A stretch of 10,451 bases of DNA, taken from IMG/VR virus record IMGVR_UViG_2563366843_000006, one strand, 5' to 3'. Numbering within the stretch: position 1 is the stretch's first letter; each line of letters opens with the position of its first letter. Shown here piece by piece: positions 1 to 10,451 of the stretch. The notes beneath the pieces are model-generated. The model was not told where the DNA came from. It was given only the letters and a program-made list of their open reading frames with translations, and did no database searches. The stretch is from a virus (taxonomy: Duplodnaviria > Heunggongvirae > Uroviricota > Caudoviricetes). A program made the translations under genes and the position numbers.

Positions 1-600
1 ATGCGTAAATTATGTGCTGTTATTCTGTCCGCAGTAGTCTGGCTGGTTGCCGCTGGTACGCCAGCAAGCGCAGCAGAGCATCAGTCCACACTAAGCGCCG
101 GGTATCTTCAGACCCATACTGATATGCCAGGCAGTGATGACCTGAAGGGCATTAACGTGAAATACCGTTATGAATTTACGGACACGCTGGGGCTGGTGAC
201 GTCATTCAGTTATGCCAATGCCAAAGATGAGCAAAAAACGCATTACAGCGATACCCGCTGGCATGAAGATTCAGTGCGTAACCGCTGGTTCAGCATGATG
301 GCGGGGCCATCTGTACGCGTGAATGAATGGTTCAGTGCTTATGCGATGGCAGGTGTGGCTTACAGCCGTGTTTCGACTTTTTCCGGGGATTATCTCCGCG
401 TAACTGACAGCAAGGGGAAAACGCACGATGTGCTGACCGGAAGTGATGACGGTCGCCACAGCAACACGTCTCTGGCGTGGGGGGCTGGCGTGCAGTTTAA
501 CCCGACCGAATCCGTGGCCATTGATATTGCTTATGAAGGCTCCGGCAGTGGTGACTGGCGCACTGACGGTTTCATCGTGGGTGTCGGTTATAAATTCTGA
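1..600 (+). CDS. lom: Outer membrane protein Lom (Ail/Lom/PagC-family beta-barrel), prophage moron
   Basis: 199-aa ORF with an N-terminal signal peptide (MRKLCAVILSAVVWLVAAGTPASA/AEH), amphipathic beta-strand pattern and C-terminal Phe (GVGYKF). Closely matches my recollection of phage lambda Lom. Lies immediately upstream of stf as in lambda and is followed by an intrinsic terminator. Confidence 0.9.
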   Translation: MRKLCAVILSAVVWLVAAGTPASAAEHQSTLSAGYLQTHTDMPGSDDLKGINVKYRYEFTDTLGLVTSFSYANAKDEQKTHYSDTRWHEDSVRNRWFSMMAGPSVRVNEWFSAYAMAGVAYSRVSTFSGDYLRVTDSKGKTHDVLTGSDDGRHSNTSLAWGAGVQFNPTESVAIDIAYEGSGSGDWRTDGFIVGVGYKF

Positions 601-627
601 TTAGCCAGGTAACACAGTGTTATGACA

Positions 628-653
628 GCCCGCCGGTTCAGGCGGGCTTTTTT
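628..653 (+). terminator. Rho-independent terminator downstream of lom
   Basis: Perfect 7-bp GC-rich stem GCCCGCC (628-634) / GGCGGGC (641-647) with loop GGTTCA, followed by TTTTTT (648-653). Confidence 0.65.
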
Positions 654-664
654 GTGGAGTGGAT

Positions 665-3040
665 ATGGCAGCAGTAAAAATCTCAGGTGTGCTGAAAGAT
701 GGTGCGGGAAAACCAATACAGAACTGCACTATTCAACTGAAGGCAAAGCGTAACAGCACCACGGTACTGGTGAACACGGTGGCCTCTGAAAATCCGGATG
801 AAGCCGGGCGTTACAGCATGGATGTTGAGTATGGCCAGTACAGCGTCATCCTGCTGGTTGAAGGTTTTCCGCCTTCACATGCCGGGACCATTACCGTCTA
901 TGAAGGCTCCAGACCAGGTACGCTGAATGATTTTCTCGGTGCCATGACGGAAGAGGATGTCATGCCGGAGGCATTGCGTCGTTTTGAGGCAATGGTGGAA
1001 GAAGTGGCACGCAACGCCGAAGCCGCCTCTCAGAGCGCAGCGGCGGCAAAGAAATCCGAAACTGCAGCGGCATCATCGAAGAACGCGGCGAAAACCTCAG
1101 AAACGAATGCAGCTAACAGCGCACAGGCGGCAGCGACCTCACAGACTGCATCGGCAAACTCCGCGACAGCAGCCAAAAAATCAGAAACCAATGCGAAAAA
1201 CAGCGAGACAGCCGCAAAGACGAGCGAAACCAACGCAAAGTCCAGCCAGACGGCAGCGAAAACCAGCGAAACGAATGCCAAAGCCAGTGAAACTGCGGCG
1301 AAAAACAGCCAGGATGCAGCGGCCCAAAGCGAGAGTGCCGCAGCTGGTTCTGCGACTTCAGCAGCTGGATCAGCAACTGCTGCGGCTAACAGCCAGAAAG
1401 CTGCGAAGACGAGTGAAACCAACGCAAAGTCCAGCCAGACGGCAGCGAAAACCAGCGAAACGAATGCCAAAGCCAGTGAAACTGCGGCGAAAAGCAGTCA
1501 GGATGCAGCAGCCGAAAGCGAGAGTGCTGCAGCTGGCTCTGCAAGCGCGGCGGCTGCTTCTGCCACTGCATCAGCCAACAGTCAAAAAGCTGCAAAAACC
1601 AGTGAAACCAACGCAAAGGCGAGCGAGACTGCGGCGGCTAACTCGGCGAAAGCATCCGCTGCAAGCCAGACGGCTGCAAAAGCAAGTGAAGACGCAGCCA
1701 GAGAGTATGCAAGCCAGGCTGCGGAGCCGTATAAACAAGTATTGCAGCCGCTTCCCGATGTGTGGATACCGTTTAACGATTCACTGGATATGATTACGGG
1801 CTTTTCGCCGTCATATAAAAAGATTGTTATTGGTGATGATGAAATAACGATGCCTGGCGATAAGGTTGTAAAGTTTAAACGCGCATCAAAAGCAACTTAC
1901 ATTAATAAATCTGGTGTGCTGACAGAGGCTGCCATTGACGAGCCACGGTTTGAACGTGATGGCCTGCTTATTGAGGGGCAAAGAACAAACTACATGCTCA
2001 ATTCGGAAAACCCTGCCAGTTGGGGGCGATCGTCAAATATGGATGTGCCCGAAACAGGGACGGATAGTTTTGGTTTTACCTATGGAAAGTTTGTCTGCAA
2101 CGATTCTCTGATTGGGCAAACCTCAGCCATTAATATGGCATCAATTGCTGCAACAAAGTCAGTTGATGTCTCAGGCGATAATAAACACGTGACAACCTCA
2201 TGTCGTTTTAAAACAGAACTGCAGGTAAGGTTGCGTATCCGGTTTGATAAATATGACGGTAGCGCAACAACTTTTCTTGGTGATGCGTATATTGATACAC
2301 AAACGCTTGAAATTAATATGACAGGCGGTGCTGCCTCAAGGATTACTGCGAGAGTCAGAAAGGACGAAGCTACCGGATGGATTTTTGCAGAGGCAACAAT
2401 TCAGGCAATTGATGGGGAGCTAAAAATAGGCTCTCAGATACAGTATTCTCCTAAGCAGAGCGGGGCAACCGTATCTGGTGACTATATTTATCTGGCCACC
2501 CCACAAGTAGAAGATGGGCCTTGTGTATCATCTTTTATTATATCAGGAGCGACGGCGGCGACCCGCGCAAGCGATATAGTTACAGTTCCAATTAAGAATA
2601 ATCTTTATAATCTTCCTTTTACGGTTCTTTGTGAGGTACATAAGAACTGGTATAAAACGCCAAATGCAGCGCCACGTGTTTTTGATACCGGCGGTCATCA
2701 AACCGGAGCGGCTATTATTCTTGGCTTCGGTCGTTCAACAGATTACGACGGATTTCCTTATTGCGATATTGGAGGAGCTAACAGACGGGTAAACGAAAAC
2801 GCATCGCTTGAAAAAATGGTTATGGGGATGCGTGTAAAGTCAGAGCAGTCTACGTGCTCAGTAAGTAACGGGCATATATCCAGCGAAACAAAAACCACAT
2901 GGTCCTGTATTCAGAACACCGCAATTATCCGTATTGGAGGCCAGACTACAGCCGGGTTACGTCATTTATTTGGTCATGTCAGGAATTTCAGAATATGGCA
3001 CAAGGCATTGACTGATGCTCAGGTGGGGGAGTCAATCTAA
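665..3040 (+). CDS. stf: Side tail fibre protein (lambda Stf-like N-terminal anchor, Ala/Ser/Thr-rich repetitive shaft, divergent C-terminal receptor-binding region)
   Basis: Long ORF (track 659-3040 from GTG). ATG at 665 is preferred because GGAG at 656-659 sits 5 nt upstream. N-terminus MAAVKISGVLKDGAGKPIQNCTIQLKAKRNSTTVLVNT... matches my recollection of lambda Stf. Central KTSETNAK-type repeats. The C-terminal ~430 aa is more AT-rich and ends ...LRHLFGHVRNFRIWHKALTDAQVGESI, reminiscent of a LamG/concanavalin-like lectin fold (tentative). Confidence 0.85.
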   Translation: MAAVKISGVLKDGAGKPIQNCTIQLKAKRNSTTVLVNTVASENPDEAGRYSMDVEYGQYSVILLVEGFPPSHAGTITVYEGSRPGTLNDFLGAMTEEDVMPEALRRFEAMVEEVARNAEAASQSAAAAKKSETAAASSKNAAKTSETNAANSAQAAATSQTASANSATAAKKSETNAKNSETAAKTSETNAKSSQTAAKTSETNAKASETAAKNSQDAAAQSESAAAGSATSAAGSATAAANSQKAAKTSETNAKSSQTAAKTSETNAKASETAAKSSQDAAAESESAAAGSASAAAASATASANSQKAAKTSETNAKASETAAANSAKASAASQTAAKASEDAAREYASQAAEPYKQVLQPLPDVWIPFNDSLDMITGFSPSYKKIVIGDDEITMPGDKVVKFKRASKATYINKSGVLTEAAIDEPRFERDGLLIEGQRTNYMLNSENPASWGRSSNMDVPETGTDSFGFTYGKFVCNDSLIGQTSAINMASIAATKSVDVSGDNKHVTTSCRFKTELQVRLRIRFDKYDGSATTFLGDAYIDTQTLEINMTGGAASRITARVRKDEATGWIFAEATIQAIDGELKIGSQIQYSPKQSGATVSGDYIYLATPQVEDGPCVSSFIISGATAATRASDIVTVPIKNNLYNLPFTVLCEVHKNWYKTPNAAPRVFDTGGHQTGAAIILGFGRSTDYDGFPYCDIGGANRRVNENASLEKMVMGMRVKSEQSTCSVSNGHISSETKTTWSCIQNTAIIRIGGQTTAGLRHLFGHVRNFRIWHKALTDAQVGESI
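1211..1623. repeat. In-frame tandem duplication inside stf, period 189 bp (63 aa), about 2.2 copies, embedded in a wider field of shorter KTSETNAK-coding repeats (about 1040-1690)
   Basis: Near-identical blocks: CAACGCAAAGTCCAGCCAGACGGCAGCGAAAACCAGCGAAACGAATGCCAAAGCCAGTGAAACTGCGGCGAAAA starts at 1231 and again at 1420; a third partial unit begins near 1610. Confidence 0.75.
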
Positions 3041-3321
3041 TGAAAGATTTAACACTCAAATTTGCCGACAGGGCCGACTTTTCGGCCTTTATGGATAGCA
3101 CTGGCTATTATGATGACGAGTCGATGCAGGATGATATTCTTATCGACGTGATAGGTAACGTGTACAAAGAAACCGGAGAACTGACTGAAGATGGCGAACC
3201 GGTATGTGTTAAGGAAGACGGATATTTTGTAAACGTGCGCATCATTAATGATTCGCAAATATCGTCATTATTCGATGAATACGTGGTTGCTGTTGAGCAT
3301 CAACTTCGTGGCTGGATGTGA
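3040..3321 (+). CDS. Hypothetical small acidic protein (93 aa), translationally coupled to stf; possibly tail-fibre associated
   Basis: ATG at 3040 overlaps the stf stop TAA (3038-3040) by 1 nt; GGGGGAG 8 nt upstream. Asp/Glu-rich, no TM segment. Function not recognisable by eye. Confidence 0.55.
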   Translation: MKDLTLKFADRADFSAFMDSTGYYDDESMQDDILIDVIGNVYKETGELTEDGEPVCVKEDGYFVNVRIINDSQISSLFDEYVVAVEHQLRGWM

Positions 3322-3330
3322 GGAAGAAAA

Positions 3331-4371
3331 ATGGCTACATCGACAGTAATTCCTGATGACATCAAAACGCTAAAATCCGACGTTAGCAAATTAAAAAACG
3401 ATCAAGGAAGCTACGCAACAAAATTATATGTAGACAGCAAAGATGAAATCGTTGGTGACTGGTCTGCTTCATGGTATCAGCAGGTATTGCCAACTAGCGG
3501 AGCTATATTTGGGAGAAAACTCCGCTCAACTCACAGGACGGCAGGTGTTGAGGATGCGTATTGCGAACTATACCTCAAAAAATGGATAGACAGTCCAGGT
3601 AACGCAATGGCGCGCCTTAACCTGAACGATAACGGGACAAACATTTGCTGGGACTTTACCAACCTTTATGGCGGTACGATGATTTTTCCCGGTGACAGCG
3701 GATACCTCAAAATGGGTAACTGCCTTATGTCATACAGCAAGCGTGGAAGTAGCGCGCTTATTAAATTTGATTACACCGACACATTACAGATCAAATATGC
3801 CAATCATGGGTCAACCATGACATTAAACACACAGGGAACCGCTTATGCTGGTGTTACTGCTCAATTGTGGGGCAACTCCAGCCGTCCTGTTGTTTATGAA
3901 GTCGGTGTTGATGGTGGCGCTTATATGTTCTATGCGCAGAAAAATACCGATAACACCTATATGTTAAGCGTTAATGGTGCATGTCATGCCACCGCATTTA
4001 ACCAGCATTCCGACCGGGATCTGAAAGACAACATTCAGGTGATCGATAATGCAACCGACCGCATCCGTAAAATGAACGGCTATACATACACGCTTAAAGA
4101 AAACGGTATGCCCTATGCTGGTGTCATTGCACAGGAAGCTCTGGAAGCAATCCCAGAAGTTGTAGGTTCCGCAATGAAATATCAGGACGGTGCGAGCGGA
4201 TCGGAAGGTGAAGAAGGTGAACGTTATTACACAGTAGATCATTCTGGTGTTACTGGCTTGCTTGTTCAGGTAGCCAGAGAGTCAGACGACAGGATAACAG
4301 CACTGGAAGAAGAAAACGCAGAATTAAGACAAAGATTATCTGCAATTGAGGCGGCGCTTGCGTCTAAATAA
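3331..4371 (+). CDS. Tail fibre/tailspike-like protein with C-terminal intramolecular chaperone auto-processing domain (peptidase S74-like)
   Basis: 346-aa ORF with AGGAAG SD 4 nt upstream. The C-terminal ~115 aa (SDRDLKDNIQVIDNATDRIRKMNGYTYTLKENGMPYAGVIAQEALEAIPEVV...YYTVDHSGVTGLLVQVARESDDRITALEEENAELRQRLSAIEAAL) matches the pattern of the chaperone domain of phage endosialidases and T5 L-shaped fibre pb1: Ser-Asp at the expected autocleavage point, a VIAQE...PE segment, and a terminal coiled coil. Confidence 0.8.
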   Translation: MATSTVIPDDIKTLKSDVSKLKNDQGSYATKLYVDSKDEIVGDWSASWYQQVLPTSGAIFGRKLRSTHRTAGVEDAYCELYLKKWIDSPGNAMARLNLNDNGTNICWDFTNLYGGTMIFPGDSGYLKMGNCLMSYSKRGSSALIKFDYTDTLQIKYANHGSTMTLNTQGTAYAGVTAQLWGNSSRPVVYEVGVDGGAYMFYAQKNTDNTYMLSVNGACHATAFNQHSDRDLKDNIQVIDNATDRIRKMNGYTYTLKENGMPYAGVIAQEALEAIPEVVGSAMKYQDGASGSEGEEGERYYTVDHSGVTGLLVQVARESDDRITALEEENAELRQRLSAIEAALASK

Positions 4372-4377
4372 TATTAA

Positions 4378-4400
4378 GGGGCCGAGTGCCCCGTTTTATT
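4378..4400 (+). terminator. Possible weak intrinsic terminator after the fibre-like gene
   Basis: GGGGC (4378-4382) / GCCCC (4388-4392) stem with 5-nt loop, then GTTTTATT. Short stem, so possibly only partial termination. Confidence 0.4.
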
Positions 4401-4413
4401 GGGTAGGATGAAA

Positions 4414-4701
4414 ATGGATATAACACCTTTCCTTCATGCGCTTTGTGCTGTGGCTGCGCAGCTACTGATTGGTCTTTTTACCGGAAACTGGGCTTACGGG
4501 GCGATAGCCGGTTGTACGTTCTTCATTGCTCGTGAACATACCCAGGCAGAATATCGCTGGATTGAAATGTTCGGGCATGGCAAGCGTATGAATATGCCGT
4601 GGTGGGGTGGTTTTGATCCACGCGTGTGGGATGTAGGAAGCCTTATGGATTTTTCTGTGCCGGTGGTGGCGTGTCTGCTGGTCTGGCTGTTTATCCGTTA
4701 A
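4414..4701 (+). CDS. Small predicted inner-membrane protein (about 96 aa), unknown function
   Basis: ORF in track (4399-4701 from TTG). ATG at 4414 preferred because AGGA at 4405-4408 sits 5 nt upstream. Hydrophobic segments FLHALCAVAAQLLIGLFTGNWAYGAIAGCTFFIA and SVPVVACLLVWLFI suggest 2-3 TM helices. Confidence 0.6.
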   Translation: MDITPFLHALCAVAAQLLIGLFTGNWAYGAIAGCTFFIAREHTQAEYRWIEMFGHGKRMNMPWWGGFDPRVWDVGSLMDFSVPVVACLLVWLFIR

Positions 4702-4850
4702 ACATAAAAAGCCGCAGCAACTTGTCATGGCAGAATACTGCGGCTGGCTGGTGAACTTCCGATAGTGCGAGTATTGAATGATTTCCAGCCATTACTGATT
4801 TTACGCATTTTTTGCATGAGAGGATTTGCACCTGCTCTCACAGACCATCT

Positions 4851-4927
4851 ATGACTGTACGCCACTATCTCTAGGGCTGCTATGTGCTGTGAGTTCAACC
4901 AATGTACGAACAGCCAGAAGCGGACAA
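4851..4927. repeat. Left copy of an imperfect inverted repeat bracketing the AT-rich cargo operon (core TATGTGCTGTGAGTTCAA at 4881-4898)
   Basis: Reverse complement of 8344-8410 aligns by hand with an 18/18 identical core plus flanks of about 21/29 and partial matches beyond, with one ~9-nt indel. Confidence 0.65.
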
Positions 4928-5037
4928 ATGATGACAAACTATATGCTCATCAACGTAGAGTAAGCCACTCAGTTGATGATGGGAGTGGGTTGCCTGCTGC
5001 CATCACTATTGTCGATTCTTAAGTGTACGCACTCTAA

Positions 5038-5068
5038 TTTACAGTTGCTTCATAGCGTAAAATATGAT
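5038..5068 (+). promoter_or_regulatory. Candidate sigma70-like promoter for the cargo operon (TTTACA ... TATGAT); weak, with non-optimal 19-nt spacer
   Basis: -35-like TTTACA at 5038-5043 and -10-like TATGAT at 5063-5068, about 90 nt upstream of the first ATG. Judged by eye only. Confidence 0.2.
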
Positions 5069-5157
5069 TTAAGATCAAAGACGTTTACATCTCGTACCTC
5101 ACAAGCAGCTTTTACTTGCTGAGGGCGGTAGCGTTTCTATTATTATCTCAAATCAAT

Positions 5158-6150
5158 ATGGATAATGTAATGAGTGAAACTAAACACATATCTGAAATGG
5201 CAGAAAGGGTGGCAAATAATTTATTCTCAATTTTTAAATGGAAAAGGAAGATTGCTTCCGATTTCAGTTGGGATTGTGTAAGCCCTGATGAACATGGAGG
5301 AAAAAAAGATCATCCGTCTGATTGCGTTTTTTATTACAGAGATCCCTATGATAATGAAGTTAAATATATTAATACTGATCTTAAGAGTTATGCGAAAGGC
5401 TCAATAACAAAAGAGCAAATTAATAAAGCAATCAGTTCTCTTTCCTATGCAACGAATTGCGCACCATATAATGATAATTGGAAAAGGTTATTTAAACCAG
5501 AAGGGAATTGGTCTGTAATAGGTATGCTGTTTGTTTATAATCATTGCGGTGAATATAATGGGGACTTTAATGAAATAGTTAAGGCGGTTGAAAATGATGT
5601 CAATCATTTGGATAATGAAAAAATGATATATATTTTCTCCCCAGATAGAATTAGAATATTAAATAGTATTGCTAATGATATCAATGTAATGATAGGGAAA
5701 GAAGAATTACCGTCTAAAAATCATTTTAGCTTCTTTCATCCCAATGAGATATTAACAAAAAATCATTTCAACCATGATTATTCTGAGCCAGCAACTATTA
5801 ATGTTCTTTCTTCACCTTGGATTATAATTAAGCATGCAGATTGTGAGAATGAAAAGGCAGGCTATTTAATATATTATACTAAAGATGGTTCAGAAGATGA
5901 CGAATTTGACTATTTTATTGATGCTCTAAGCTATTACCAAATAATCAATAATACAAGTAATGTCAGAATCAAATTAACAATAAAAAATGAATTTGCAGCA
6001 AGTAATCTTTTAAACTCAATTAGTAAATACTATCAGTCTCTCGGTCGTACCGAAAAAGAATCAATGCAAATCGCCAATACAATGGTAAAAGGTACTATTG
6101 ATTTGGTTACACCACAGTTTTCTGCTAATGAAATTGGAGTTTTACCATGA
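5158..6150 (+). CDS. Hypothetical protein A of AT-rich three-gene operon (about 331 aa); N-terminal region has a tentative PD-(D/E)xK nuclease-like motif arrangement
   Basis: Long ORF in a roughly 30% G+C region; track ORF 5116-6150 begins at TTG. First ATG is at 5158, alternative at 5170; neither has a strong SD. Stop TGA overlaps the start of gene B (ATGA at 6147-6150). Asn/Lys/Ile/Tyr-rich, no TM or signal peptide. Confidence 0.75.
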   Translation: MDNVMSETKHISEMAERVANNLFSIFKWKRKIASDFSWDCVSPDEHGGKKDHPSDCVFYYRDPYDNEVKYINTDLKSYAKGSITKEQINKAISSLSYATNCAPYNDNWKRLFKPEGNWSVIGMLFVYNHCGEYNGDFNEIVKAVENDVNHLDNEKMIYIFSPDRIRILNSIANDINVMIGKEELPSKNHFSFFHPNEILTKNHFNHDYSEPATINVLSSPWIIIKHADCENEKAGYLIYYTKDGSEDDEFDYFIDALSYYQIINNTSNVRIKLTIKNEFAASNLLNSISKYYQSLGRTEKESMQIANTMVKGTIDLVTPQFSANEIGVLP

Positions 6151-7253
6151 GTAATCCTGAGAAAAAATTTGGTCATAGTATTTACTACATGAACGATCAA
6201 AATATTAGGGATGGTTTACTAGCGCAGAAAGTTAAAGCATCACATTTGATAAAAATTTTAAAAGATCGCAACATTTTAGTATCACCTCTATCTTCAAAAG
6301 AAGAACTGATAAACATGTTAAAGTTTATCAGATTCGATTATTATGATTATGTTTATTTATCATCAATTCTTGCAAATCAAGATAAAAAAGAAAGTAAGTC
6401 AAGTATTGATATAGATAAGAAAGTCACTGCTAAGCAAATATTAAGTACGTTTGAGTCGATTAAAGGAGTGTTAGAAGCTCGTCAAATTACAGCCGAGGTT
6501 TCTAAACAAAACAGTAAAAAAATAACTATCAACTTTGAGTATGTTGAGTTTGATCATTCGAAACCACCTATGCGTCAAAAATCATTCCGTAAAGGGGTAG
6601 TTGAATGTGATATAACTGCTACAGGTGCGATGCTTAATTATCCAGCAAATAAAGTTGGGGCAATAATAAAAGACCATTTAATCACACAACTTTCCAAAAA
6701 GTTAGATACTGAATTGAAGCCAATCGAATTTGATTTTGAGAACTCCAGTGTTGCAACTAGAAATAATTTCTTCCTTAGTGTAATCAATAATGTTGAAAAG
6801 TATGAAGTATACGATGTTGTCACTGTGGCAGTTAAGAAGATAGAAGAGAAAAAAGGAAAGGAAAGCTCCTCGTCAGCGGATTCAGACAATGATTCGGTAG
6901 GGGAAGCATTTACTGGAGAAGTTAGAAACGCCATTCTACGCGGAAATCAGATTTTAACTTCAAAAGTATACAGTGGGTTAAATACAGGGAATTATTATAT
7001 TTATAAAATTACTTGGAAGATTAGAGAAATAATTCCGGGCTTGGGATCTGAACAATCTGATTGTTATACGGTTGAGATTGAGTTTAGTGATAAAGATAAG
7101 GCTAAAGGACTAAAGTATTGTGTTAAAACTGTTCAGCGATTCTCCTCAAAAAATAGACTGAATGTTACAACTGAAAATCCTTTAAAAAATGAGCAAGAAA
7201 AATTAGGAAAGCTCATTTATAAAACAGCCCTAGATGTCTATTCTAAAATATAA
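6147..7253 (+). CDS. Hypothetical protein B of AT-rich three-gene operon (368 aa); two regions separated by a Ser/Asp-rich acidic linker
   Basis: ATG at 6147 with GGAG SD at 6136-6139 (7-nt spacing), overlapping the gene A stop. No recognisable catalytic signature by eye; linker KKGKESSSSADSDNDSVGEAF at about 6850-6910. Confidence 0.8.
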   Translation: MSNPEKKFGHSIYYMNDQNIRDGLLAQKVKASHLIKILKDRNILVSPLSSKEELINMLKFIRFDYYDYVYLSSILANQDKKESKSSIDIDKKVTAKQILSTFESIKGVLEARQITAEVSKQNSKKITINFEYVEFDHSKPPMRQKSFRKGVVECDITATGAMLNYPANKVGAIIKDHLITQLSKKLDTELKPIEFDFENSSVATRNNFFLSVINNVEKYEVYDVVTVAVKKIEEKKGKESSSSADSDNDSVGEAFTGEVRNAILRGNQILTSKVYSGLNTGNYYIYKITWKIREIIPGLGSEQSDCYTVEIEFSDKDKAKGLKYCVKTVQRFSSKNRLNVTTENPLKNEQEKLGKLIYKTALDVYSKI

Positions 7254-7268
7254 ATGGGGGATGGCATT

Positions 7269-7946
7269 ATGGAAAAAAGAATCGTTTTTTATGATTTTGA
7301 AACTCCTTTTAATCAGGAGCAAATCAGCAAAAGATTGATTGAAAACCAATTTACAAAAGATGCGATCTCAGGTTTTAGTTTACAGAAAAATAATAGTACT
7401 GGGATTTACTTCCGACATATTAAAAAGATTATTAACATTGACGTTGTGTTAACACCTTTTGGTGAAGAATATGAAAATACCACAATCGCCTACGCTACCA
7501 ATGAGGTGAAAATAACTGATAAGTCTCTTCGTATAATTAACCCATCTAGAACACTTGCTCCCTTTCGAACAGATTTGGTGAAGTCTCTAGACTTTCAGTG
7601 CACTATAAGTAATAAGAATATAGAATTAAGTCCACTATTGTTATCTTTGAGAGAAAGGAATGTTAATATCAACTTGACTGATATTGAACTTACTACATAT
7701 GACCTCTTTAAGGATTCTCGAGTTAAAATGGTCATTTCTTCTAATAGTGATTTAATTGGCAAAGCAGAATCCTATTTAAATAATGTTAAGTCCAACATCA
7801 CAAAAATAGGTTTTTCTTTATTGTTTAATGGTGATTATTATTTTGTTGAAATTGGTTGTAAAGGTTCATTGAAAATATCAGGGGATTTAATAGAGGATAA
7901 TTTGGAATATTATATTATTAATGAAATTCTATCTTTAGATGCTTAA
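7269..7946 (+). CDS. Hypothetical protein C of AT-rich three-gene operon (225 aa from ATG 7269; 230 aa if ATG 7254 is used)
   Basis: ORF directly abutting the gene B stop (TAA 7251-7253). GGGGGA at 7256-7261 is 7 nt upstream of ATG 7269, favouring that start. AT-rich codon usage like A and B; followed by a terminator at 8027-8057. Confidence 0.75.
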   Translation: MEKRIVFYDFETPFNQEQISKRLIENQFTKDAISGFSLQKNNSTGIYFRHIKKIINIDVVLTPFGEEYENTTIAYATNEVKITDKSLRIINPSRTLAPFRTDLVKSLDFQCTISNKNIELSPLLLSLRERNVNINLTDIELTTYDLFKDSRVKMVISSNSDLIGKAESYLNNVKSNITKIGFSLLFNGDYYFVEIGCKGSLKISGDLIEDNLEYYIINEILSLDA

Positions 7947-8026
7947 CCGCCTTGCTGTTGTGGGGGAAGTTTGAAAGTTAATATTTATTAACAAACATAT
8001 TGTTTTTATACCGTTTTTTAAAAAAA

Positions 8027-8057
8027 AGAGTCGAGACTTAAAGCGGCTCTTTTTTTA
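8027..8057 (+). terminator. Intrinsic terminator closing the three-gene operon (possibly bidirectional)
   Basis: Stem AGAGTCG (8027-8033) / CGGCTCT (8044-8050) including one G-U pair, 10-nt loop, then TTTTTTT (8051-8057); A-tract immediately upstream. Confidence 0.5.
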
Positions 8058-8343
8058 TTAGTTGTTGGGTTGAATTGAATTTTAAAATAAGTTCCTGCAA
8101 TAAGAACGAACCAAGTAAACGATCTGGAAATTATTAATCTTTTCCTCCCGATGAAGATTCTTCTGAGTGCGGATCAAAGTAACTTAACGTTACTTTCCTC
8201 ACCAACACAAAGTAAAAAGGTATTTTTTAAATGTAAAATAGTCAAATCCGACGAAAAGTATAAATTAATATACTTGATTTGTTCCTGTTATTTCCTGGCC
8301 AACCTGCAACAATTGGAAGTGGCAACTAAAATTTGCTATGTAT

Positions 8344-8410
8344 ATGTTCGCTTGTCGCTGTGCGTCCATCGATTGAACTCACAGCACATAACAGACATTC
8401 ACTACAGTTA
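8344..8410. repeat. Right copy of the imperfect inverted repeat bracketing the cargo operon (core TTGAACTCACAGCACATA at 8373-8390, the reverse complement of 4881-4898)
   Basis: See left copy. The two copies face each other across about 3.4 kb containing only the three AT-rich genes and their terminator. Confidence 0.65.
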
Positions 8411-8762
8411 TGGTAGAAGGTATGCATGCTGGGTGGGGAAAGTATGAAGGAAAAGAAGACTGCTGCGCCGTTTGTCGTCACATTTATCTTCATTGGCTAT
8501 GCAAGTCGTAATACAAGGTGGGACAAAACAGAGACACATAAGGTCTCACAAAGGTCTGCAAGGCCTCACATGTATTGAGATGTTAATAAAATGTAGACTT
8601 GTAATTTGGATATAAATGGTAGAGAAAACCTTTCCCCAAAATAAAAACGAACGTCAATGAAATCAAACGGTTGAATAAAGTTGATTTTGGCTAATAAAAA
8701 AACAATAAAATAATTTTTATCATTAAATATCAATGACTTGAACTTAATGTTTTTATATACTG

Positions 8763-8924
8763 CTGCGCCATATGGGCTGGACTGAAGCCGCAGACTTGAT
8801 TGTTAAAGGTATGGAAGGCGCAATCAATGCGAAGACCGTAACCTATGATTTCGAACGTCTGATGGAAGGTGCTAAACTGCTGAAATGCAGCGAGTTTGGT
8901 GATGCGATCATCAAGAACATGTAA
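8763..8924 (+). pseudogene. icd: Orphan 3' fragment of isocitrate dehydrogenase gene (last ~54 codons, icdC-like), marking the prophage/host junction (attR side)
   Basis: In-frame translation [53 protein letters not shown] matches my recollection of the E. coli Icd C-terminus. No icd sequence upstream, where unrelated AT-rich DNA begins at about 8760. Followed by a strong terminator. Confidence 0.85.
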
Positions 8925-8947
8925 TTACTACATGTGTTAAATATTGT

Positions 8948-8979
8948 AACGGGCGTATAACACGCCCGTTGTTTTATTT
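8948..8979 (+). terminator. icd intrinsic terminator (could also serve convergent iraM)
   Basis: Perfect 9-bp stem AACGGGCGT (8948-8956) / ACGCCCGTT (8962-8970), loop ATAAC, then GTTTTATTT. Confidence 0.75.
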
Positions 8980-9026
8980 ATGTGGATATTATTAATATCA
9001 TGTCGAGAATATTTATATGAAGGCCA

Positions 9027-9350
9027 TTACTTGAGTCCATATGGGCATATTTTTATAATACAACTATTATGTAAACATTTATTTGTTATTTCGCTTTCTC
9101 CTGGAGGACACTCTTGACTGCTTTTGAGTAAACTCCATAAATTCTTGTTGAATGGTGCAATGTTATAAATAGTAATAGGATATTCTTTATCCTCAAGGAT
9201 AATACCAGGCTTAACCGGTGTAAATATACTTCCAGGAGGAAGAAATATAGTAGATTGATACCAGATGATCATTTTCATATCACCCCATATGGCTGAAAAA
9301 GATATGCCGCATGTAGGTTGAATTACCGTGTCAATTACTACCCACTTCAT
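9027..9350 (-). CDS. iraM: Anti-adaptor protein IraM (RssB inhibitor stabilising RpoS)
   Basis: 107-aa [46 protein letters not shown]...CPYGLK closely matches my recollection of E. coli IraM (YcgW). Located next to the icd remnant as in E. coli K-12; long AT-rich upstream region. Confidence 0.8.
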
Positions 9351-9788
9351 TTGTTATGTCTTATCCCACGGTATTTAATATAGTTCATTTGGATGTTCAT
9401 TTCTTTATTTTGCATATGAGTATATTACCCTTCAAAAAAATAAATTAATTAAAACGATTGCTTATATAAAACAAAATTTAAAGCAAGTAATCTCAATAGA
9501 GATTAAACAAAATGAGATTTAGTGAAAACATTAAATCATTCACTTCGTTTTAGATTTGTTTAGTTAAAATGTTATACATTCAAATGACTGAACATCCTGT
9601 AATTAAAACATAGCCTTTATGCTACTTTGCGCTAATTTGCTAAACATTATGATTGGCCTTTTTATATAACGATAATGATGAATATAAGCATGACATGAGA
9701 ATAAGGTTTCAATTTTTGAGTTATATAGGAATGATTTAACCTGTTCCTGGCTAAAATACATATAACCGGATGATGACTAAACCAAAAC

Positions 9789-9840
9789 ACATGTGCGTTA
9801 AGTATTGAAACGGACGTATGGCACGCCCGTTGTTTTTATA
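9789..9840 (+). repeat. Degenerate second copy of the icd 3'-flank/terminator segment (direct repeat of 8930-8980)
   Basis: ACATGTG(C)GTTAAGTATTGAAACGGACGTATGGCACGCCCGTTGTTTTT aligns with ACATGTGTTAAATATTGTAACGGGCGTATAACACGCCCGTTGTTTTA at roughly 85% identity; the hairpin carries one stem mismatch (A9814). Confidence 0.6.
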
Positions 9841-10046
9841 AATATGTTAACCGTTATAAAATAACGTATAGAAAGTCAAGTAATCACATTTCAAATATCA
9901 ATTTGATAGTATTGATCTGGTGATTATTTATGGGTGGCAATAAAAAGATAGTATTACTCATCCATATGAATAGTCTCTGCACTTTTATTTCCATTATGCT
10001 AATGCCTTACTGAATTATGAAGTATTTTTTAAGCATCCAACTTTAG

Positions 10047-10451
10047 CTAGATTAATGGTTTATTATTTTCTACATCTTCAATATATAAAAGCGTATTATC
10101 AATGGCGTAGTAACTGCGTTTGTTATGATTAACATCAGTAACCCACCGGAAAACGCCCGCGTCTGCCAGTGTTGAACAGTATTCCCGAAATGTTGATTTT
10201 CCGCAAATATGAAGCAATGCGGCCTCTTTTATTTTAGCAGGGTTCTTGGTCGTACTAACTTTTAACAGGTTCCTGGTTCCTCTTAATAACAAAACCGTGT
10301 CATCGTGAGTAATAATTCTGATGTTATCCGTAGCCAGATAATAAATGTAATGTGCAATACGGTGATGTTTTAATTCTGAATAAAACCAGGAGAAGTTTTG
10401 CTCTTTTCTCACTTGCTCAAACATCTTTTGAAAAACAACAACCTGATCCAT
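10047..10451 (-). CDS. ycgX: Hypothetical protein, likely YcgX-like (DUF1398 family); start codon lies at the window edge
   Basis: 134-aa ORF with ATG at 10449-10451 (minus strand) and stop at 10047-10049. Assignment rests on synteny downstream of iraM in E. coli K-12 and on protein size; the sequence itself was not recognised with certainty. Confidence 0.5.
   Translation of the reverse strand: MDQVVVFQKMFEQVRKEQNFSWFYSELKHHRIAHYIYYLATDNIRIITHDDTVLLLRGTRNLLKVSTTKNPAKIKEAALLHICGKSTFREYCSTLADAGVFRWVTDVNHNKRSYYAIDNTLLYIEDVENNKPLI

Follow-up and report, generated by a model that had tools for sequence, protein, structure and literature searches.

In Escherichia coli genomes the gene iraM lies downstream of icd, on a short AT-rich segment bracketed by two copies, A and B, of the icd terminator region. 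This arrangement was studied at the right end of the Caudoviricetes record IMGVR_UViG_2563366843_000006, a stretch of 10,451 nt (the window) of which positions 1-8760 are filled by a resident prophage similar to phage 21. The two copies are best explained as paralogues left behind when lambdoid phages integrated, one after another and site-specifically, at the 3' end of icd, an explanation to which we assign a probability of roughly 0.75. An earlier reading of the DNA from its sequence alone had proposed that the second copy is a decayed att-like duplication left by an older element that delivered iraM next to icd. That proposal now gains support from a single-copy allele, from an icd block carried by phages, from a larger island between the same repeats and from phage homologues of iraM.

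A repeat search of the window revealed a direct repeat of 43 nt (8933-8975 and 9794-9836) with 86% identity and a spacing of 861. When gaps are allowed, copy A (8930-8975, plus strand) and copy B (9789-9836, plus strand) agree in 41 of 48 alignment columns, with one 2-nt indel, and their alignment score of 60 compares with a mean of 23.7, a standard deviation of 3.0 and a maximum of 37 among 300 shuffled sequences. The sequence-only reading was thus correct in placing a direct repeat at the icd terminator, the copies being slightly shorter than the intervals 8930-8980 and 9789-9840 it had proposed. Both copies contain the identical 15-nt block CACGCCCGTTGTTTT (8961-8975 in copy A, 9822-9836 in copy B), and their likeness takes in the loop and 16 nt upstream of the stem. 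The hairpin of copy A (8946-8972) is perfect, with 10-11 bp followed by a T-run. That of copy B (9809-9831) has the single stem mismatch noticed earlier, an A.C on the plus strand that corresponds to a G.U pair on the minus strand, where the stem is unbroken at this position. The segment between the copies (8976-9788, 813 nt) is as AT-rich as had been stated, with a GC content of 0.225-0.36 over 8900-9800. Its only sizeable gene is iraM (9027-9350, minus strand); that it is the only gene at all, as first claimed, does not hold, since RefSeq also annotates ymgK, 14 codons at about 9607-9651 within the iraM upstream region. Insertion of an insertion sequence or transposon with target-site duplication was considered and rejected: in the window the ends of the 813-nt segment carry no inverted repeats, there is no transposase open reading frame (ORF), and the duplication measures 47 nt as opposed to the expected 2-14 bp. 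An Rfam scan of 8400-10451 (E <= 1) yielded no known RNA family, with two sub-threshold matches, to tpke11 (23.7 bits versus a gathering score of 43) and to the L20 leader.

Phages identify the repeated unit. Phage 21 and e14 integrate into icd and thereby duplicate its 3' end, and such icd-integrating lambdoid phages carry in their attP a block of about 216 nt composed of the icd 3' end and the terminator. The phage 21 record is annotated, in order, with an ICDH-like pseudogene (last 53 codons), the terminator, three attP subsites (consensus YYTTCCCCAAAA) and a tyrosine integrase. The extended icd block and icd as a well-known integration site have been described (PMC6379469, PMC10111431). 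Twenty-eight isolated phages, among them phage 21, ev017, 4A7 and 1H12, match 8761/8766-8976 of the window at 89-95%, up to the end of the T-run, and in genomes with a prophage-free icd the match to the window starts at 8761/8766 (query position 62/67). In a scan of 185,579 species genomes (one per species) and of IMG/VR the hairpin was found solely at icd-related junctions; it is not a dispersed repeat. About 20 of the matches are prophage attL junctions in E. coli, Shigella, E. albertii, another Escherichia species and three Citrobacter species. In these junctions phage DNA directly follows the icd 3' end and hairpin, and chromosome homology stops right after GTTGTTTT, at the same base at which the homology between copies A and B ends. 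The repeat thus ends where phage-to-chromosome homology ends, within the phage-borne block, and therefore represents the last 47 nt of the roughly 216-nt block. It corresponds to the far tail of this identity block and not to the crossover core, whose place is at the opposite end, near 8761. The term att-like duplication is accordingly apt for the unit, which matches the tail of the one duplicated by icd-specific phages such as phage 21, but not if it is taken to mean the core.

The P' arms at the attL junctions fall into two families, one with repeats of TTCCCCAAAAC and the other with GCTAACGGTTATCAAAATTTTATCAAAA. The e14 attL of K-12 consists of the icd 3' end, a variant hairpin and a P' arm of the second family. 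Its hairpin (locus L007, 1990-2030, minus strand) reads AACGGGAGCGTAACGCTCCCGTT, compared with AACGGGCGTATAACACGCCCGTT in the chromosomal and phage-21-type form; paired changes keep the stem, an example of natural covariation within the att block. The E. coli-type icd hairpin occurs in Citrobacter (C. amalonaticus, L056; Citrobacter sp. Cu233, L059; C. braakii, L067) solely at prophage attL junctions, and phages therefore carry the terminator across genera, overwriting the native icd 3' end. Contigs of two metagenome-assembled genomes, labelled Sutterella sp. (L062) and Veillonella parvula (L063), contain E. coli icd/prophage junction sequence and most likely reflect contamination of the bins with E. 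coli.

The segment between the repeats is precisely absent from a large group of strains. Positions 8700-10451 were compared by megablast with 5426 complete E. coli genomes, 3843 of which have the entire interval including the iraM segment. A short class covers about 54% of the query in two pieces that span 889-891 bp instead of 1752; the missing 861-863 bp are close to the repeat spacing. With a junction-spanning query, 1037 of the 5426 genomes were found to have a single hybrid copy and no iraM. In alignments of strains MCJCHV-1 and GN05476 this allele has, from left to right, the icd end, the copy A hairpin and, past CACGCCCGTTGTTTT, the sequence otherwise found to the right of copy B; six more examples were obtained from IMG/VR. 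This is the single copy at an iraM-less site that the sequence-only reading had suggested looking for. It had also named two findings that would contradict it. One was the occurrence of both copies in genomes without iraM; none of the loci examined showed this, the roughly 546 of the 5426 genomes outside both counted classes not having been inspected one by one. The other, conservation of copy B as a regulatory element of iraM, does not apply either: at least five copy B alleles occur in about 16 loci, and one lineage with iraM has deleted copy B. Among the single-copy matches are the type strain ATCC 11775 and ATCC 25922, which, like CFT073, belong to phylogroup B2, and the single-copy allele is probably that of phylogroup B2. 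CFT073 has been reported to lack iraM (PMC4045071). In the E. coli O157 strain AR-0427 (L084, NZ_CP044148.1) the icd terminator is followed by integrase and excisionase genes and a degraded lambdoid prophage, and the record has no match to iraM or ycgX; iraM is therefore lacking by a different route than in the single-copy strains.

A rare lineage, reached via YcgX variants of 89-90% identity, then contigs and then complete genomes, retains far more DNA between the copies. Nineteen complete genomes labelled E. coli (for example N96, NZ_CM169999.1, L083, 2549-8835; also L078-L082) contain an island of about 6.3 kb between icd and ycgX, and both flanks of this lineage diverge by 3-5% from those of K-12 and B2. 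At the left end rluE, icd and the hairpin are followed by about 105 nt of an e14-type P' arm, 86-94% identical to extant attL junctions, with no int gene. Next come a 455-residue orphan ORF, a transposase pseudogene, trkG, iraM (80% nucleotide identity) and a ymgB-like gene of the YmgB/AriR family, and the right end consists of a homologue of window positions 9379-9728, copy B, ycgX, bluR and bluF. The trkG gene is 90% identical to that of the Rac prophage, and the identity includes adjoining lysis-gene sequence. The 455-residue product matched no Pfam, NCBIfam or PADLOC family and had weak PHROG matches of unknown function; the ymgB-like gene had no match in phage genomes. The iraM segment of the window is 72-80% identical at the nucleotide level to part of this island. 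The island demonstrates that what lies between the copies may still be identifiable as the remnant of a prophage. Copy B of N96 is preceded, in register, by the exact 13-mer ATCAAGAATATGT, the last 13 nt of icd before the stop codon, for which the probability of chance occurrence is well below 1e-4. The repeat of the window is confined to the final 47 nt of the block; the N96-type copy B keeps 13 nt more exactly, and perhaps more than that. The 13-mer indicates that copy B derives from a duplication that took in icd coding sequence, as phage integration makes. In a further variant (GCA_009898965.1, L078, 5405-5560) iraM and the ymgB-like gene are kept, and a deletion of about 470 bp has removed the icd remnant, copy B and the ymgL region.

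The cargo also points to phages. IraM matches NCBIfam NF007393 over its full length (residues 1-107; 168.7 bits, cut-off 121), a family from which a function as anti-adaptor of RssB is predicted, and phrog_4407 (E 3e-51). Its coding sequence is about 72% identical in nucleotides and 65% in amino acids to an ORF in 46 phage records, mostly of Stx2 phages. In Stx2 phages and vB_EcoS phages the iraM-like ORF is antisense to its neighbours, with Q/stx on one side and the holin gene on the other, and the E. albertii homologue occupies the same position in a lambdoid prophage. The chromosomal iraM is therefore a member of a phage gene family; in Stx2 and E. albertii prophages its homologues sit as morons between Q and the lysis genes. 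Of the features typical of a moron it has homologues in the antisense Q-[iraM-like]-S position and a low GC content, and a promoter and terminator of its own are putative. Phage-derived genes between the repeats thus comprise iraM and, in the N96 island, the Rac-like trkG with its lysis sequence. Plasmid matches to the iraM segment, considered as possible mobile copies, proved to be chromosomal fragments or misassigned records. To the right of copy B, ycgX (10047-10451, minus strand; DUF1398, PF07166) falls into phrog_413. In E. albertii its homologue is part of a lambdoid prophage, flanked by Rz and Nu1, and a YcgX homologue of Escherichia sp. E10V10 is found at the fliDST-yedEF locus; ycgX may have remained from an insertion that is older still. 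In lambdoid prophages (L068 and L072 of E. albertii) the iraM-like and ycgX-like genes are antisense to the late operon and follow the order Q-[iraM-like]-S-R-Rz-[ycgX-like]-Nu1, and the relative order and orientation of iraM and ycgX 3' of icd are the same.

Traces of a P' arm may persist directly right of copy B (9837-9892, plus strand; compare GCTAACGGTTATCAAAATTTTATCAAAA). The flanks of several alleles were aligned with e14-type P' arms, anchored in register from the end of the hairpin, and the scores were compared with those of shuffled controls. Against the e14 and N96-left P' arms, the observed score was reached by 0-1 of 2000 shuffles for the K-12 allele, by 2-4 for the single-copy allele and by 186-249 for the window allele. 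For the N96 allele the numbers were 42 of 2000 against e14 and 196 of 2000 against the left arm of N96 itself. When extant type-2/3 arms (L022, L031, L059) were used, the observed score was reached by 0-1 of 1000 shuffles for the single-copy allele and by 4-96 of 1000 for that of the window. These comparisons suggest that copy B and its flank may once have formed the attL of a still older e14-like element, of which ycgX is perhaps a residue.

The following sequence of events would account for the locus. The attP of a phage of the phage 21/e14 type carries a replacement of about 216 nt for the last ~165 nt of icd and the terminator, followed by arm sites and int. Integration at the core inside icd would join the phage-borne copy to icd and displace the previous copy to the far end of the prophage. 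Copy B, with the e14-like arm remnant on its right, would be such a displaced older copy, and copy A the terminator of the copy in current use. The displacing element would have brought iraM as a moron, and deletions would then have shrunk it to 813 nt in most E. coli and to about 6.3 kb in the N96 type. In the present strain a third, phage-21-like prophage would have integrated again, such that copy A now belongs to the icd pseudogene at its attR. The repeats would have become substrates for deletion, recombination in the 15-nt identical block giving rise to the single hybrid copy of the iraM-less strains.

Several observations weigh against this scheme. Within the 813 nt no integrase, excisionase or recognisable P/P' arm was found, and the right flank of copy A does not resemble P' arms of either the phage 21 or the e14 type. 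In the window, anchored and local alignments of the DNA upstream of copy B give no significant homology to the icd coding 3' end (z -1.0 to 1.0); a long-gap alignment reached by 10 of 2000 shuffles is uninformative, as it included the proximal known homology. Even in N96, collinear similarity beyond the 13-mer to the start of the icd fragment is marginal, being reached by 29 of 2000 shuffles. The iraM upstream region (9351-9788), presumably with the promoter and regulatory sites, has no phage nucleotide match, the search with the whole segment having matched the coding sequence alone, and is homologous only to the N96-type island (72-74%). No sequenced phage combines an icd-type attP (28 records) with an iraM-like gene (46 records). 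Two elements could be combined in the N96 island, in which case iraM need not have arrived with the e14-like arm. No outgroup species was recovered at the icd locus, their ycgX and iraM homologues being located in prophages or elsewhere, and the apparent invariance of the copy A hairpin is in part an ascertainment effect of the search pattern. Of the features of an icd-specific duplication, the direct repeats and the one-copy unoccupied allele are present, and a P' arm and a tyrosine integrase beside copy A are missing from the window. Because it has neither integrase nor arms, the iraM segment does not qualify as a prophage in the strict sense; it fits prophage integration followed by deletional decay.

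The absence of int and of an arm site within the segment would be expected if no phage had been involved and a small circular or linear DNA with iraM and a terminator copy had been inserted by homologous or illegitimate recombination, duplicating about 47 nt without an integrase. The confinement of the window repeat to the intergenic terminator, beginning 5 nt after the icd stop codon, is compatible with such an event. It is nevertheless very unlikely, as copy B of N96 runs into icd coding sequence, the N96 island opens with a phage P' arm, the 3' boundary of the repeat is that of the phage attP blocks and the flank of copy B resembles the e14 P' arm. Terminator hairpins are short and alike in design, and the weak Rfam match to tpke11 might be cited in favour of mere chance or of convergence of GC-rich terminators. 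This has a negligible probability and is effectively refuted by the alignment score relative to the shuffles, by the likeness beyond the stem and by the single-copy allele, which is deleted precisely between the copies. A present function of the hairpins has also to be considered. Copy A is called as a terminator on the plus strand (z -3.9), folds with -15.8 kcal/mol on the plus and -15.5 kcal/mol on the minus strand, and, to judge from this strong symmetric hairpin, most likely terminates both the icd fragment and the convergent iraM transcripts. Copy B is not called as a terminator on either strand and folds with -8.1 kcal/mol (plus) and -12.6 kcal/mol (minus), reaching up to -15.5 kcal/mol on the minus strand across alleles. 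On the minus strand the 10-bp stem is intact in four of five copy B alleles, with folding energies of -12.6 to -15.3 kcal/mol. In three independent cases a stem position has changed from G to A on the plus strand, which gives G.U on the minus strand; these changes are compatible only with the latter (3/3, p ~0.125) and hint that copy B may still terminate ycgX/ymgL transcripts. It is conceivable, though the smaller chance is given to it, that copy B has been kept chiefly for such a function, as ycgX-ymgL terminator and insulator of the iraM promoter, and that its likeness to copy A is functional; as a statement on its present role this is compatible with a relic. The single hairpin between the convergent icd and ymgL/ycgX in the single-copy strains fits such a function. 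Against it speak the modest p value, the K-12 allele, which is mismatched on both strands, the poor U-tract and lack of a terminator call on the minus strand, and the deletion of copy B in the L078-type strains.

Whether the single-copy allele arose by deletion or represents the original empty site concerns the order of events. In a neighbour-joining tree of the 614-nt right flank all eight single-copy loci form one clade inside the main E. coli cluster, and the iraM-containing N96 and L078 types lie outside. B2 and K-12 are 98.4% identical in the left and 97.2% in the right flank, and N96 is 96.2-97.5% (left) and 95.0% (right) identical to either; both flanks therefore give ((single-copy, K-12), N96), and both outgroups with iraM carry the island. 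Copy B and the single copy disagree at 5-7 of 47 positions, compared with a difference of about 3.5% in the adjoining 614-nt flank. By parsimony the tree, the flank identities and the divergence of copy B favour deletion over an empty site, and the comparisons make it fairly probable that the island is older than these lineages and that one precise deletion between the repeats occurred in the single-copy ancestor. The converse, in which the ancestral site was unoccupied and survives as the single-copy allele, and in which the iraM element entered only a non-B2 ancestor and was then spread or inherited, the N96 type stemming from the same or a parallel event, appears less likely. It would explain that the single copy is a clean hybrid, as for attB, and that the single-copy loci are one clade; moreover, an identity of 15 nt is short for RecA-dependent deletion, and phage-borne copies could refresh the copy in use and blur arguments from divergence. 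The position of the iraM-containing N96 type outside the K-12 and single-copy group on both flanks would then require two gains or lateral transfer, the excess divergence of copy B over its flank would be unexpected, and so would the TTAAG change common to mainstream and N96 copy B. Recombination in the region, the missing outgroups and the possible overwriting of the copy in use by phage copies keep the empty-site alternative alive beside the preferred deletion.

The arrangement is closest to the icd duplication by e14 and phage 21 (the icdC pseudogene of K-12), with which it has in common the target, the last 47 nt of the duplicated sequence, the 3' boundary, foreign AT-rich DNA between direct repeats and one-copy unoccupied alleles (PMC6379469; PMC10111431). 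It differs in that copy B consists of the terminator tail alone, that no integrase, arm sites or phage structural genes lie between the copies, that the copies are 85% and not 90-95% identical and that the unit is located outside the annotated e14-type prophage. Like the K-12 cryptic prophages Rac, DLP12 and Qin, which have kept cargo such as trkG, bor and ybcV/ydfO, it exemplifies deletional decay that leaves genes useful to the host, N96 having a Rac-like trkG and ycgX being a phage DUF1398 homologue. The reduction here is far more extreme, to one gene of 107 codons with its promoter region, recognisable only through the att repeat and a rare lineage. The lambdoid morons between Q/pR' and the lysis cassette (stx; the iraM-like ORF of Stx2 phages 1717 and 2851) are likewise small AT-rich antisense genes, with the 65% amino acid and 72% nucleotide identities given above for iraM, but the upstream region of chromosomal iraM is long, different and without phage match. 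IraL of uropathogenic CFT073 is a paralogous anti-adaptor that was also acquired horizontally and is variably present, but it resides on another island, at potB (PMC4045071). The discussion of that paper locates iraM "on the e14 prophage". Both K-12 and the window have iraM outside the prophage attR, marked by the icd pseudogene, in a repeat-bounded segment of its own, and the published placement is therefore corrected. The variable presence of iraM has already been published, and no new kind of element or mechanism is involved here. In the literature no description was found of the repeat-bounded iraM segment, of its precise absence in a fifth of the genomes, of the N96-type island or of the moron position as evidence of origin.

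The end of the window contains, in order, the right arm of the prophage, the icd 3' fragment, the hairpin terminator, iraM on the minus strand, an AT-rich spacer, a short ymgL-like ORF (9884-9994, minus strand) and ycgX. In the right (P) arm of the resident prophage lies the integrase arm-site motif CTTTCCCCAAAA (8628-8645, plus strand), which is of the phage 21 type (compare the attP subsite consensus above) and is repeated in type-1 attL junctions. The att identity block at attR (8761-8976, plus strand) consists of the terminator and an icd 3' fragment of about 53 codons, seen as an ORF at 8772-8924 (stop codon 8922-8924) that RefSeq calls a partial isocitrate dehydrogenase. The sequence ACTGCTGCGCCGTTTG inside the prophage arm (8459-8474) resembles ACTGCTGCGCCATATG at the prophage/icd junction (8759-8774) in 14 of 16 nt, by chance or as a secondary core-like site.

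Layers from three or more phage integrations into a single att site might even be stacked in the DNA 3' of icd, namely the phage-21-like prophage, the iraM remnant and the e14-like attL relic by ymgL/ycgX. In that case a considerable share of the E. coli genes for RpoS and biofilm regulation in this neighbourhood (IraM, YcgX, perhaps the YmgB/AriR-family genes and bluRF) would have been delivered piecemeal as prophage cargo, and the repeats would still be deleting modules in lineages such as B2; this wider picture is a speculative one. IraM stabilises the stress sigma factor RpoS in magnesium starvation, and, according to published work, chromosomal iraM is wired into the PhoQ/PhoP regulon of the host. 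The presence or absence of iraM thus alters the regulation of the general stress response across E. coli lineages. The successive integrations proposed here would give iraM a concrete origin, as cargo of a decayed lambdoid phage integrated at icd, and would provide a mechanism for its clean absence in about a fifth of the sequenced strains, known extraintestinal pathogens included. Relic att repeats may serve in this way to establish the sequence in which old integrations took place at a hot spot.

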